A DNA stretch of 10,517 bases from a virus (Duplodnaviria > Heunggongvirae > Uroviricota > Caudoviricetes), in IMG/VR virus record IMGVR_UViG_2585427755_000006; one strand, given 5' to 3'. Shown one piece after another: positions 6,707 to 9,474 of the stretch. The position numbers and the translations under genes were made by a program. The notes beneath the pieces were generated by a model, which had not been told where the DNA came from, searched no databases, and worked only from the letters and a program-made list of their open reading frames with translations. The number at the start of each line of letters is the position of its first letter. Positions within the stretch are counted from its first letter, which is position 1.

Positions 6707-7009
6707 TCATTGTGTACCCATTGATGTTCTTTTATATACCCTCAATACCCGTTTCATCGCGGCACTCTGGCGACACTCCTTAAAAATCAGATTCGTGCTC
6801 ACCTTTCCTTCCCGTTCTTCTCTGGTAGCGAACCGGTAATACACCGTTCGCCAGACCTTACCATCAACGACCAGGATTCCTGCCCGCGCCATTTTAGCCG
6901 CAGCCTGATTTATGCTGGTTACGGTTGCGCCTGTTACCGCGGCAACGTCCTGTGCACAGAAGCTCTTATGCGTCCCCAGGTAATGAATAATTGCCTCTTT
7001 GCCCGTCAT
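6707..7009 (-). CDS. renD: Lambda Ren-like protein (100 aa)
   Basis: Translation MTGKEAIIHYLGTHKSFCAQDVAAVTGATVTSINQAAAKMARAG... matches recalled lambda Ren. ATG overlaps an upstream in-frame stop (ATGA), as at the lambda P/ren junction. Confidence 0.8.
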   Translation of the reverse strand: MTGKEAIIHYLGTHKSFCAQDVAAVTGATVTSINQAAAKMARAGILVVDGKVWRTVYYRFATREEREGKVSTNLIFKECRQSAAMKRVLRVYKRTSMGTQ

Positions 7010-7104
7010 ACACTTGCTCCTTTCAGTCCGAACTTAGCTTTAATTTCTGCGATCTTCGCCAGAGCCTGTGCACGATTTAGAGGTTTAGGCGCAATCACTT
7101 TCGT
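7006..7104 (-). pseudogene. Probable 3' remnant of replication gene P (last ~32 codons)
   Basis: Minus-strand frame open from 7104 to the stop at 7006-7008, translating ...TKVIAPKPLNRAQALAKIAEIKAKFGLKGASV*. No start codon; an in-frame TAG sits at 7105-7107. Assignment to P is from the lambda P-ren gene order and coupling, not from a verified match. Confidence 0.4.
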
Positions 7105-7213
7105 CTACTCCGTTACAAAGCGAGGCTGGGTATTTCCCGGCCTTTCTGTAATCCGAAATCCCCTGAAAGCACAGCGGCTGGCTGAGGAGATAAATAATAA
7201 ATGGGGGGGCTGT

Positions 7214-7405
7214 ATGCACAAAGCATCTACCGTTAAGTTAAGAACGAGTATCGAGATGGCACATAGCCTCGCTCAAATTGGAGTCAGGTTTGTGCCAATA
7301 CCAGTAGAAACAGACGAAGAATTTCACACGTTAGCCGCATCCCTTTCACAAAAGCTGGAAATGATGGTGGCGAAAGCAGAAGCAGATGAGAGAGACCAGG
7401 TATGA
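7214..7405 (+). CDS. Small 63-aa protein, lambda exo-xis orf63-like by position and size
   Basis: ATG at 7214 behind a GGGGGGG Shine-Dalgarno. Translation MHKASTVKLRTSIEMAHSLAQIGVRFVPIPVETDEEFHTLAASLSQKLEMMVAKAEADERDQV. First in a coupled chain of small genes. Confidence 0.6.
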   Translation: MHKASTVKLRTSIEMAHSLAQIGVRFVPIPVETDEEFHTLAASLSQKLEMMVAKAEADERDQV

Positions 7406-7485
7406 CAACCACTGAATGCATTTTTCTGGCAGCGGGCTTCATATTCTGTGTGCTTATGCTTGCCGACATGGGACTTGTTCAATGA
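7402..7485 (+). CDS. Possible 27-aa hydrophobic micro-protein (MTTTECIFLAAGFIFCVLMLADMGLVQ)
   Basis: ATG overlaps the stop of the upstream gene (ATGA) and its own stop overlaps the next ATG (ATGA). One predicted TM helix. No independent support. Confidence 0.3.
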   Translation: MTTTECIFLAAGFIFCVLMLADMGLVQ

Positions 7486-7697
7486 CACCTCAGCAGGAAA
7501 ACGCCCTTCGCAGCATTGCCCGTCAGGCTAATTCTGAAATCAAAAAAGCCAGACAGCAGTTTCCGGATAAAAACGTCGATGACATTTGCCGTAGCGTACT
7601 GAAGAAGCACCGCGAAACGGTAACGCTGATGGGATTCACACCGACTCATTTAAGCCTGGCAATCGGCATGTTAAACGGCGTCTTTAAGGAACGATGA
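7482..7697 (+). CDS. Small 71-aa protein, lambda exo-xis orf61-like by position
   Basis: Translation MTPQQENALRSIARQANSEIKKARQQFPDKNVDDICRSVLKKHRETVTLMGFTPTHLSLAIGMLNGVFKER. The track ORF is extended upstream to 7416. Confidence 0.55.
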   Translation: MTPQQENALRSIARQANSEIKKARQQFPDKNVDDICRSVLKKHRETVTLMGFTPTHLSLAIGMLNGVFKER

Positions 7698-7789
7698 ACA
7701 TGAAAAGCAAAATCATCAGGGAGCTACAGGCTCCTTTTTTATTATTCGCATTCACCCTCAAGCGTATTAACCAACAATTCAGGGATTAA
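7694..7789 (+). CDS. Possible 31-aa micro-ORF (MNMKSKIIRELQAPFLLFAFTLKRINQQFRD)
   Basis: ATG overlaps the upstream stop (ATGA). Fills the gap before the TraR-like gene. Could be chance. Confidence 0.2.
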   Translation: MNMKSKIIRELQAPFLLFAFTLKRINQQFRD

Positions 7790-7795
7790 TGGAAG

Positions 7796-8017
7796 ATGGC
7801 AGACATCATTGATTCAGCATCAGAAATTGAAGAATTACAGCGCAACACAGCAATAAAAATGCGCCGCCTGAACCACCAGGCTATATCTGCCACTCATTGT
7901 TGTGAGTGTGGCGATCCGATAGATGAACGAAGACGCCTGGTCGTTCAGGGTTGTCGGACTTGTGCAAGTTGCCAGGAAGATCTGGAGCTTATCAGTAAAC
8001 AGAGAGGTTCGAAGTGA
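7796..8017 (+). CDS. TraR/DksA-family C4 zinc-finger protein (73 aa), lambda orf73-like
   Basis: CCECGDPIDERRRLVVQGCRTCASCQ gives a C-x2-C...C-x2-C zinc finger after an acidic N-terminal helix, typical of TraR-like RNA polymerase secondary-channel binders. Size and position match lambda orf73. Confidence 0.75.
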   Translation: MADIIDSASEIEELQRNTAIKMRRLNHQAISATHCCECGDPIDERRRLVVQGCRTCASCQEDLELISKQRGSK

Positions 8018-8316
8018 GCGAAATTAACTCTCAGGCACTGCGTGAAGCGGCAGAGCAGGCAATGCATGACGACTGGGGATTTGACGCAGACCTTTTCCAT
8101 GAATTGGTAACACCATCGATTGTGCTGGAACTGCTGGATGAGCGGGAAAGAAACCAGCAATACATCAAACGCCGCGACCAGGAGAACGAGGAAATTGCGC
8201 TAACGGTAGGAAAGCTGCGCGTTGAGCTGGAAGCAGCAAAATCAAAACTCAACGAGCAGCGTGAATATTACGAAGGTGTTATCTCGGATGGAAGTAAGCG
8301 TATTGCTGAACTGTAG
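8014..8316 (+). CDS. Ead/Ea22-like protein (100 aa, coiled-coil C-terminus)
   Basis: GTG start overlapping the upstream stop (GTGA). Translation MSEINSQALREAAEQAMHDDWGFDADLFHELVTPSIVLELLDERERNQQYIKRRDQENEE... matches a recalled Ea22-like family. Confidence 0.55.
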   Translation: MSEINSQALREAAEQAMHDDWGFDADLFHELVTPSIVLELLDERERNQQYIKRRDQENEEIALTVGKLRVELEAAKSKLNEQREYYEGVISDGSKRIAEL

Positions 8317-8566
8317 GCCTAGGTTGAATGTACAAGATTTGCATACGTAAGAGCAAAAGACAAGGGAGAATTGATCAGAGTTATTACCTGCCAACCAACG
8401 GGATATTACGCTTACGTACCATGTAACTAGGAATCCTTGAAGTGGCAGCCTAACTGTGGATACACTGAAATGGCGATTTGGTAACATGTTTCGCACAAGG
8501 CTGTTACTACGCTTAGAGATAATCAGTCATGATTAAATGCTTTGTAAAAAGTAAAAGGAAATTACA

Positions 8567-9181
8567 ATGAAAAAATCAACACTAATTTTAGGGCTTACGT
8601 TAATTGTCTCATCTCAAATACCATCGGCAATGGCAAAAAATGAATCAAAACTTTGGGTTGTTGTTGATCGAACGGAAAGACATACCTGCCCTTCAAGTAA
8701 ATGTGGAGTGGCTGGGAAACTATTTTTCAGGGAAGGCGTAGATTTTCTAGAAAAAAAAGGTGAATGGGTTCGTATAACTGAGCCATATTCAGCCTCATGT
8801 GTGGGAGGGGAAAGCGAATATATTAAAGAAGGTAATAAATCCTGCACAAGAAAAAACGGAATCGTTAATGGCAAGTTTTCAGAATGGGTTAAACTTAGTG
8901 ATCTTAGCAGTGAAAGGCCATCAGATCCTGCTGAAAATGCGAGCAGAAATGATACCTTAATCAAAGGATCTGATGACTACCGTATATACAAAAAAGAGTT
9001 TTCTTCGGCAGCTAGGAAGTTAATAAGTGAAGGTGTCTGCACGGAGAGCGATTTTAAGGAAGTTGGAGGGTGGATGGCATCAAGCAATAAGGGTGAAAAC
9101 ATCTATTTCACATATTGCGGAGGAATGACGTTGTCGAACAGAATATATCTAGACGTTAAAAGTGGAAAGACTTTTAGATAA
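8567..9181 (+). CDS. Secreted/periplasmic hypothetical protein (204 aa) with cleavable signal peptide and an SH3b-like N-terminal region
   Basis: Signal peptide MKKSTLILGLTLIVSSQIPSAMA with AxA cleavage motif. The stretch LWVVVDRTERHTCPSSKCGVAGKLFFREGVDFLEKKGEWVRI resembles a bacterial SH3 fold. Six cysteines. AAGGAAA RBS. Lies in the AT-rich island. Confidence 0.7.
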   Translation: MKKSTLILGLTLIVSSQIPSAMAKNESKLWVVVDRTERHTCPSSKCGVAGKLFFREGVDFLEKKGEWVRITEPYSASCVGGESEYIKEGNKSCTRKNGIVNGKFSEWVKLSDLSSERPSDPAENASRNDTLIKGSDDYRIYKKEFSSAARKLISEGVCTESDFKEVGGWMASSNKGENIYFTYCGGMTLSNRIYLDVKSGKTFR

Positions 9182-9252
9182 TATGATATTACCAATGACA
9201 GCATTAATTTAATGCCTCCATAGAATTATCTCTAGGAAGTAAGTATAAGAAA

Positions 9253-9289
9253 AGTCCGCACAATGAGCTGCTGCGGGCTTTGTGTTATT
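9253..9289 (+). terminator. Candidate rho-independent terminator after the secreted-protein gene
   Basis: AGTCCGCA (9253-9260) / TGCGGGCT (9272-9279) stem with one G-U pair and an 11-nt loop, followed by TTGTGTTATT. Confidence 0.4.
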
Positions 9290-9474
9290 CGCCATATTTT
9301 ATGAAGCAAATACGACACTATAGATAATTAAGCGTTACTGGTTGTCGATTCCTCACTCATTCCTGCTGATGGCTGTCTTCTTGTATGTGTCATTGAAGGG
9401 TAATATCGCGTAAAAAGATACCGGAAGTATCCGCGCCGCTATGATTGTCTTTCTCCTGATGCAGGAAAAGCAGA

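Follow-up and report, generated by a model that had tools for sequence, protein, structure and literature searches.

We analysed a 10,517-nucleotide (nt) stretch of DNA from a tailed phage (Caudoviricetes; IMG/VR record IMGVR_UViG_2585427755_000006), called the window throughout, in which positions 7214 to 8316 carry a chain of small plus-strand genes. Judged by its sequence, it represents the conserved core of lambda's exo-xis early-gene block, inside a defective lambdoid prophage. Between two of its genes, orf63 and orf61, lies an open reading frame (ORF) for a hydrophobic peptide of 27 amino acids (aa) that is probably a real small-protein gene and has been overlooked. The chain, the identities of its genes and a second micro-ORF of 31 aa are already known; what we did not find in the literature is the coding signature of the 27-aa ORF and the absence of such a signature from the orf61 extension that overlies it. 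Beyond this ORF the segment is textbook lambda in a dead prophage. Our combined reading, which we consider moderately likely to hold in all its parts, is that the window contains the exo-xis core in a defective prophage, that the 27-aa gene is real, that orf61 encodes a protein of 71 aa, and that the 31-aa ORF is mainly cis-acting. The features at the centre of the argument are these:

7402-7485, plus strand: 27-aa hydrophobic micro-ORF, MTTTECIFLAAGFIFCVLMLADMGLVQ, linked at either end by an ATGA, to the orf63 stop and to the orf61 start.
7416-7481, plus strand: putative N-terminal extension giving the 93-aa orf61 of Shiga toxin (Stx) phages; judged non-coding.
7482-7697, plus strand: orf61 in its intact 71-aa form (WP_000188870; PHROG 303), with a weak Shine-Dalgarno (SD) sequence of its own.

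The comparison drew on 235 usable homologous loci, which collapse to 111 haplotypes over positions 7380 to 7810; three error-rich assemblies were left out of this set. Complete Escherichia coli genomes contain roughly 4,200 copies in all. For each frame we counted distinct variant types and compared the fraction that is synonymous with the expectation from the observed mutation spectrum. In its own frame, the 27-aa ORF has 14 synonymous changes among 27 variants (expected fraction 0.27, p=0.005) and 11 among the 15 recurrent ones (p=0.0002); third codon positions account for 15 of the 27. The original prediction had proposed synonymous bias as a check on its two micro-ORFs, and this one passes it. 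Each of the other forward frames of the same DNA gives 6 synonymous variants of 27 (expected 0.27-0.29, p=0.79-0.83; recurrent 3/15, p=0.82-0.85), and the overlying extension frame, over 7416-7481 only, gives 4 of 21 (expected 0.26, p=0.84; recurrent 2/10, p=0.78). The enrichment is thus limited to the 27-aa frame among the three forward frames, and it is comparable to that of two control genes, orf61 at 7482-7697 (27/53 synonymous, expected 0.29, p=7e-4; recurrent 15/25, p=0.0013) and orf73 (36/73, expected 0.27, p=4e-5; recurrent 30/50, p=9.3e-7). The third control, orf63, is not enriched (12/47, expected 0.26, p=0.58; recurrent 9/28, p=0.29) even though its protein has a nuclear magnetic resonance (NMR) structure, which makes the test conservative.

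Other aspects of the 27-aa ORF point in the same direction. Across the 235 loci it has no indels and a single variant that turns Q26 into a stop. Of 214 loci, 181 (85%) encode exactly this peptide, and the 15-nt run encoding CVLML never varies among the haplotypes. The ATGA that joins its start to the orf63 stop (7402-7405) is kept in all 214 informative loci, and the overlap of its stop with the orf61 start (7482-7485) in all 217, as ATGA in 198 and as GTGA in 19. As a rough estimate, an open frame of 26 codons that begins on one gene's stop and finishes on the following gene's start would arise by chance in less than about 1% of cases (0.25 x 0.29 x 0.33 x 0.27). The original prediction had called the peptide hydrophobic, and it is: the grand average of hydropathy (GRAVY) is 1.62, and the best Kyte-Doolittle windows reach 2.33 over 19 residues and 2.87 over 15. 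Fifteen unbroken apolar residues are followed by Asp-Met-Gly-Leu-Val, which places Asp22 within the hydrophobic segment; the only charged residues are Glu5 and this Asp22, for a net charge of -2. Insertion into a membrane would be the most natural reading of such a peptide. A type I toxin or holin-like role was considered, but there is no evidence for or against it, and we do not claim one.

The claim that the two micro-ORFs are unannotated needs correction, for NCBI and UniRef already list both exact peptides as hypothetical proteins. Gene calls for the 27-aa peptide exist on 981 contigs, and UniRef has an entry for it, with only sporadic deposits under the name "hypothetical protein". Its 90%-identity cluster also holds two glycosyltransferase-like proteins of 428 aa, presumably a clustering artefact. 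Neither micro-peptide has a family in Pfam, PHROG or NCBIfam, and a full-text search for both peptides returned nothing; we found no literature on the 27-aa one. A tblastn search of phages with the 27-aa peptide returned the same family only, and a search of IMG/VR with a degenerate back-translated pattern lacking the usual Val codon yielded one contig with a single synonymous change and no deeper divergence.

Mosaic variants show what happens to the 27-aa ORF when its surroundings are exchanged. In about one tenth of the loci (22 of ~210), a DNA adenine methyltransferase gene takes the place of orf63, and homology to the window starts exactly at 7402, the ATG of the 27-aa ORF. The methyltransferase gene ends in ...GGGAGGCTGCATGA (GGGAGG-CTGC-ATGA), so that a consensus SD sequence stands four bases before the 27-aa ATG and the ATGA is kept. 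The ATGA at its start is thus retained whether the gene before it is orf63 or an unrelated methyltransferase with GGAGG, and the ORF behaves as a gene-like module. Two other arrangements differ. Loci of the L118 type (344 cluster members) have a 250-aa gene followed by TGA-GGCCAAT-ATG and contain neither the 27-aa ORF nor the 93-aa extension; their orf61 begins at the 71-aa ATG with a GAGG of its own. In locus L089 (Escherichia sp. E1V33), an unrelated 355-aa protein with a DGQHR motif (71-1138 of the locus) stands in place of orf63 and of the first part of the 27-aa ORF, and its ATGA falls onto the 93-aa orf61 frame. The part of the 27-aa ORF that L089 retains differs from the window mainly by changes that are synonymous in the 27-aa frame.

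Several observations weigh against the 27-aa ORF as a gene. The family is narrow, consisting of lambdoid prophages of E. coli with a DNA identity of at least 93%, and only 27 variant types stand behind the test. The failure of orf63 (12/47) to show enrichment means that the test has limited sensitivity in either direction. The L118 type, which does without the 27-aa ORF, indicates that it is dispensable for orf61, and L089, the single case that speaks against the 27-aa model, has lost its first codons together with the ATG. Lys and Arg are absent from the peptide, an unusual feature for a membrane micro-protein and one that does not agree with the positive-inside rule. We found no direct evidence of its translation: the peptide is not in the ribosome profiling (Ribo-seq) supplements for enterohaemorrhagic E. 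coli, and we found no paper that mentions it. Finally, the antisense frame whose third positions coincide with those of the 27-aa frame is also enriched (11/27, p=0.035; recurrent 9/15, p=0.003), so the synonymous signal by itself does not fix the strand. A search for more distant relatives of Orf61, meant to check its start and whether a micro-ORF precedes it, found the family confined to E. coli lambdoid prophages; P0104 and P0110, apparently 51-52% identical, were dropped as low-quality assemblies riddled with frameshifts; and a scan of genome contigs returned mostly lambda control-DNA contamination of unrelated genomes and added no diversity.

Downstream of orf61 the chain continues with the second micro-ORF and two overlapping elements:

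7694-7789, plus strand: 31-aa micro-ORF, MNMKSKIIRELQAPFLLFAFTLKRINQQFRD (29 aa from the ATG at 7700), with an AAGGA SD sequence.
7718-7742, plus strand: terminator-like hairpin (stem of the GGGAGCU / AGCUCCU type, 7718-7736, then T6), from a terminator scan; RNAfold -10.2 kcal/mol.
7789-7812, plus strand: 7-aa ORF, MEDGRHH (MKDGRHH in lambda), sharing TAATG with the 31-aa stop and running over the orf73 start.

For the 31-aa ORF the synonymous-bias check gives no significant result (12/31 in its own frame, expected 0.30, p=0.18; recurrent 5/11, p=0.2), and its variant density of 34 per 100 nt equals that of orf73 and exceeds those of orf63 and orf61. One explanation is that 7694-7789 is primarily a Rho-independent terminator or another RNA hairpin between orf61 and orf73, and that the 31-aa frame is incidental. 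The -10.2 kcal/mol hairpin and the T6 that follows it, a GC-rich stem-loop with a U tract, qualify 7718-7742 as a putative terminator of this kind; the hairpin core at 7720-7738 is the longest invariant run in 7214-8013 among the 111 haplotypes, and codons beyond the hairpin show free variation, with 12 variants synonymous and 19 non-synonymous. Rfam has no match in the region. However, all of 228 loci have the ATG at 7700, all of 226 end the ORF with TAA, and the AAGGA is conserved as well, while the frame is broken in only 3 of ~230 loci, each a single case. A review (PMC8614690) that cites Liu et al. 2013 states that ribosome profiling of lambda added two genes to this block, orf2311 (7 aa) and orf2313 (31 aa), and thus reports support for a translated 31-aa gene there. 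We therefore regard an incidental frame as a possibility to be taken seriously, if on the unlikely side; the two readings are also compatible, as a translated ORF can overlie a terminator.

The reading we prefer for the 31-aa ORF takes in both sets of observations. As its amino acids are not detectably constrained and the hairpin is the best conserved part, a role in cis is more probable than one exerted through the peptide. The ORF may be a translated short frame whose main selected feature is the RNA element, its peptide being incidental; its translation may keep ribosomes on the message across the hairpin and deliver them to orf73. N antitermination would in any case carry transcription past the terminator in the phage. 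The 31-aa ORF is most likely orf2313, since the equivalent of 7694-7789 is the sole 31-aa ORF in the conserved block of lambda. This equation is drawn from size and location. The 7-aa ORF, whose ATG and stop are conserved in all informative loci, is possibly orf2311, to judge from its size and the adjacent numbering. Phage accessions exist for both the 29-aa and the 31-aa form; the former is annotated in 434B, Lambda PV340536, Chlobot, Lambda_2E9 and ev110, in one case with a curated ribosome-binding site.

All the ORFs and overlaps listed in the original prediction are present in the ORF list and the sequence of the window. ATGA can be read at 7402-7405, 7482-7485 and 7694-7697 and GTGA at 8014-8017, and a gap of 6 nt separates the 31-aa stop from the ATG of orf73. 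A further link, absent from the original prediction, is the TAATG that the 31-aa ORF shares with the 7-aa one. The chain of joined stop and start codons that was described is real, and its overlaps are conserved in at least 99% of the loci: at 7694-7697, where the upstream start of the 31-aa ORF alternates between ATG and GTG, 125 loci have ATGA and 101 have GTGA, and two have GTTA, so that the overlap is kept in 226 of 228. As a measure of ribosome binding we calculated the energy of the duplex with the anti-SD sequence for each start. It is -10.6 kcal/mol for orf63, -5.6 for the 27-aa ORF, -3.8 for ATG 7416 (the 93-aa form), -3.9 for ATG 7482 of orf61, -6.1 for the 31-aa ORF, -4.9 for orf73 and -7.2 for ea22. 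In an intact phage the genes would be read from the N-antiterminated pL transcript, and, with each stop overlapping or abutting the next start, a terminating ribosome may reinitiate on the following gene. Coupling of termination and reinitiation along the chain would fit the weak SD sequence of orf61 here as against the strong one where the 27-aa ORF is absent.

Such coupling invites the explanation that both micro-ORFs are ribosome relays that keep the mRNA covered and that their peptides have no function. The conserved stop/start overlap at every junction would follow from it, as would the weak SD sequences at the orf61 and orf73 starts, the strong SD sequence that orf61 carries in variants without the 27-aa ORF, and the lack of significant constraint on the amino acids of the 31-aa ORF. 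For a relay, however, any sense codon should do, yet the 27-aa frame has an excess of synonymous changes in both tests (p=0.005 and 0.0002), its peptide is 85% invariant, and the run encoding CVLML does not vary at all. We consider this explanation unlikely. A 27-aa ORF that encodes a real protein would also pass ribosomes to the weak-SD start of orf61.

The 27-aa ORF fills, in another frame, the exact stretch that separates two competing calls of orf61. The gene is called as 71 aa from ATG 7482 by the RefSeq Prokaryotic Genome Annotation Pipeline (PGAP) and in phage 434B, and as 93 aa from ATG 7416 in Chlobot, Lambda_2E9, PHROG 303, Phi24B (in the literature) and 933W. If the longer call were correct, as in Phi24B, 933W and PHROG 303, then 7416-7481 would encode the N-terminus of Orf61, and the hydrophobic ORF would be a by-product and no gene. 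Consistent with this, none of the 215 loci lacks ATG 7416, many gene callers opt for the longer form, and in L089 the ATGA of the upstream gene falls on the start of the 93-aa frame while the 27-aa ATG is lost. The sequence of the extension behaves differently: only 4 of its 21 variants are synonymous, Gly is replaced by Arg, Thr by Ala and His by Tyr in common alleles, and the commonest extension peptide is found in just 110 of 215 loci (51%). Its start has a weak SD sequence (-3.8 kcal/mol), RefSeq PGAP picks the 71-aa form, and orf61 of the L118 type lacks the extension and has its GAGG before the 71-aa ATG. Structure predictions for residues 1-23 also conflict; according to PMC8614690, AlphaFold and RoseTTAFold disagree on this part of the 93-aa Orf61. 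A coding extension in place of the 27-aa gene is thus distinctly unlikely. The remaining idea, that the synonymous bias in 7405-7481 is due to an antisense gene (minus-strand ORF 7284-7469, 61 aa), accounts for the enrichment of that frame, with which the 27-aa frame shares third positions (11/27, p=0.035; recurrent 9/15, p=0.003), but is extremely improbable, as the sense strand is the more strongly enriched, this antisense ORF is unenriched over orf63 (13/29, p=0.11), one variant introduces a stop into it, no promoter-like site on the minus strand adjoins it, and it lacks the start/stop architecture that frames the sense ORF.

The evidence therefore favours the 71-aa protein from 7482 as the true product of orf61 over both the 93-aa and the 61-aa annotations, and the L118 type and the methyltransferase mosaic together support 7482 as its start. 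The 93-aa form reads as an over-extended call and the 61-aa form of lambda as a laboratory-strain frameshift. In the original prediction, 7482-7697 tracked lambda orf61 by order and size. The gene position is indeed the same; the reading in the lambda reference, however, is frameshifted by a run of seven A (A7) in the region of lambda 30865-30871, where the window (at 7541-7546) and nearly all other lambdoid prophages have six (A6). The classical lambda orf61 (61 aa, 30839-31024) begins upstream, in the 7416 frame, but is no longer in frame at its end, and on account of the A7 run it is a frameshifted reading of the 71-aa gene. Among the collected loci the A7 allele is found only in lambda, its laboratory derivatives and lambda contaminants. 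The last of these (L090-L103) are contigs identical to laboratory lambda, many of ~48.4 kb and all with A7, in assemblies of other genera (Shewanella, Pseudomonas, Bradyrhizobium, Paenibacillus, Kitasatospora, Oceanobacillus and others); they are evidently lambda control-DNA contamination of public assemblies. The NCBI pipeline labels many copies of Orf61 "cell division protein ZapA", a name that looks unfounded given that Orf61 matches no hidden Markov model in Pfam or NCBIfam. In phage PhiR63_2, a complete genome record, a deletion of 4 nt at the equivalent of 7565-7568 cuts orf61 short, which suggests that the gene is dispensable in this phage.

If the 27-aa ORF is real, then Orf61 is wrongly modelled both for Stx phages (93 aa) and for lambda (61 aa), the existing orf61 deletion mutants would be double mutants, and an extra early micro-protein of the membrane type has to be placed in the lysis-lysogeny network. 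By tblastn, the lambda copy of the peptide lies at 30928-31008, inside the annotated orf61 (30839-31024). A deletion that spans the annotated gene would remove the 27-aa ORF wholly in lambda and almost wholly in Phi24B, provided that its endpoints span it. Measurable effects have been reported for the deletion of lambda orf61, and PMC8614690 describes lambda Orf61 as truncated and unfolded. As a tentative suggestion, and one we hold to be rather doubtful, the 27-aa peptide may function early in lambda and Stx phages as a micro-protein that has been overlooked inside the annotated orf61, and the effects on lysis-lysogeny and induction now credited to Orf61 could belong to it in part or in full. 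If true, this reassignment would hold above all for lambda, where Orf61 has the frameshift and a predicted unfolded state. The question matters because the exo-xis block affects prophage induction, and hence the release of Shiga toxin, in pathogenic E. coli, and its genes are currently studied singly, by deletion and structure prediction.

The remaining features of the block and its left edge are as follows:

7094-7241, plus strand: remnant of orf60a (DUF1317), frameshifted (RefSeq E. coli 1409 locus 7945-8092; lambda alignment).
7122-7150 (lambda ~31259-31287), plus strand: strong GC-rich hairpin, then TTTCTGT, inside orf60a; RNAfold -17.6 kcal/mol.
7214-7405, plus strand: orf63 (DUF1382), 63 aa, PF07131 (E=5e-29) and PHROG 292, with a strong SD sequence (run of G).
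7796-8017, plus strand: orf73, 73 aa, with a TraR/DksA-type C4 zinc finger, PF01258 (1.6e-8) and TIGR02419.
8014-8316, plus strand: N-terminal 100 codons of ea22, GTG start, Ead_Ea22 PF13935 (2.9e-29); "partial" in RefSeq.

The matches to PF07131, PF01258 and PF13935 are all above their cut-offs. Positions 7086-8313 align with lambda NC_001416 30096-31323 at 97.6% nucleotide identity, with the order orf60a-orf63-orf61-orf73-ea22 kept; this identity and the Pfam families DUF1382, zf-dskA_traR and Ead_Ea22 bear out the gene order orf63, orf61, orf73, ea22 that had been proposed from gene sizes and positions. The hairpin inside orf60a is probably tL3 of the pL operon, for which termination lies near 31262. 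The hairpin inside the 31-aa ORF was also considered as tL3 and rejected, as by its coordinates tL3 would fit the stronger hairpin at 7122-7150.

In a database comparison, the chromosome of E. coli 1409 proved 100% identical to the window, and we used its RefSeq annotation for the setting of the block. The prophage lies at the lambda attachment site and adjoins ybhC, and xis and int are retained downstream. Gone are exo, bet, gam, N, cI, cro, O and most of P, and with them pL and pR. The placement expected of an exo-xis block, between exo and xis and downstream of pL, is thus not seen in the window; its left flank is formed by ren and a cut-off P gene on the opposite strand, and the deletion junction lies within 7006-7241, where truncated P (minus strand) meets frameshifted orf60a (plus strand). 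A scan of the window found no promoter-like site on the plus strand around the block. Because its promoter region has been deleted, the chain in the window is probably silent, or at least expressed unlike that of a phage. On the right, homology to lambda stops at ~8313, and beyond ~8320 the GC content falls to 0.36-0.40. A low-GC insert (~8320-9350) replaces the C-terminal part of ea22 and carries a 204-aa ORF (8567-9181) with a signal-peptide-like N-terminus and no match in Pfam; as the free-living phage Chlobot (PP925838) has the same arrangement, the insert looks like a moron and not like decay.

The 27-aa peptide resembles known bacterial and phage membrane proteins that are hydrophobic and shorter than 50 aa (KdpF, CydX and AcrZ, or the type I toxins TisB and Ibs) in its length and in its single hydrophobic stretch, which is of membrane-spanning length or nearly so. 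It differs from them in having no similarity to any Pfam, PHROG or NCBIfam family, no flanking Lys or Arg and a charge of -2, and we know of no antisense-RNA partner or toxicity associated with it. In comparison with the two additions that profiling made to the lambda block, the 31-aa ORF matches orf2313 in size and location and the 7-aa ORF lies directly adjacent, whereas the 27-aa ORF is not among them and in lambda is hidden inside the annotated orf61. Like leader peptides over terminators in attenuation, the 31-aa ORF is a short frame that spans a terminator-like hairpin just upstream of the next genes; unlike in attenuation leaders, we identified neither an alternative antiterminator pairing nor regulatory codons in the block. 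With operons of phages and bacteria that are coupled by ATGA or GTGA, the chain shares the same four-base overlaps at three junctions and GTGA at a fourth, their conservation and the weak SD sequences downstream, but two of its links are micro-ORFs and not ordinary genes.

The closest comparison is with the exo-xis region of lambda itself, and of Phi24B and 933W, which has been studied extensively in lambda and Shiga toxin phages and is said to modulate the decision between lysis and lysogeny. The window has the same DNA, the same gene order and the same Pfam families. Whereas intact phages transcribe the block from pL, the prophage in the window has lost pL and pR, its orf60a is frameshifted, and its ea22 is cut after 100 codons by the low-GC insert. 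In orf61 the relation is reversed, as the window carries the intact A6 form and lambda the frameshifted A7 form.

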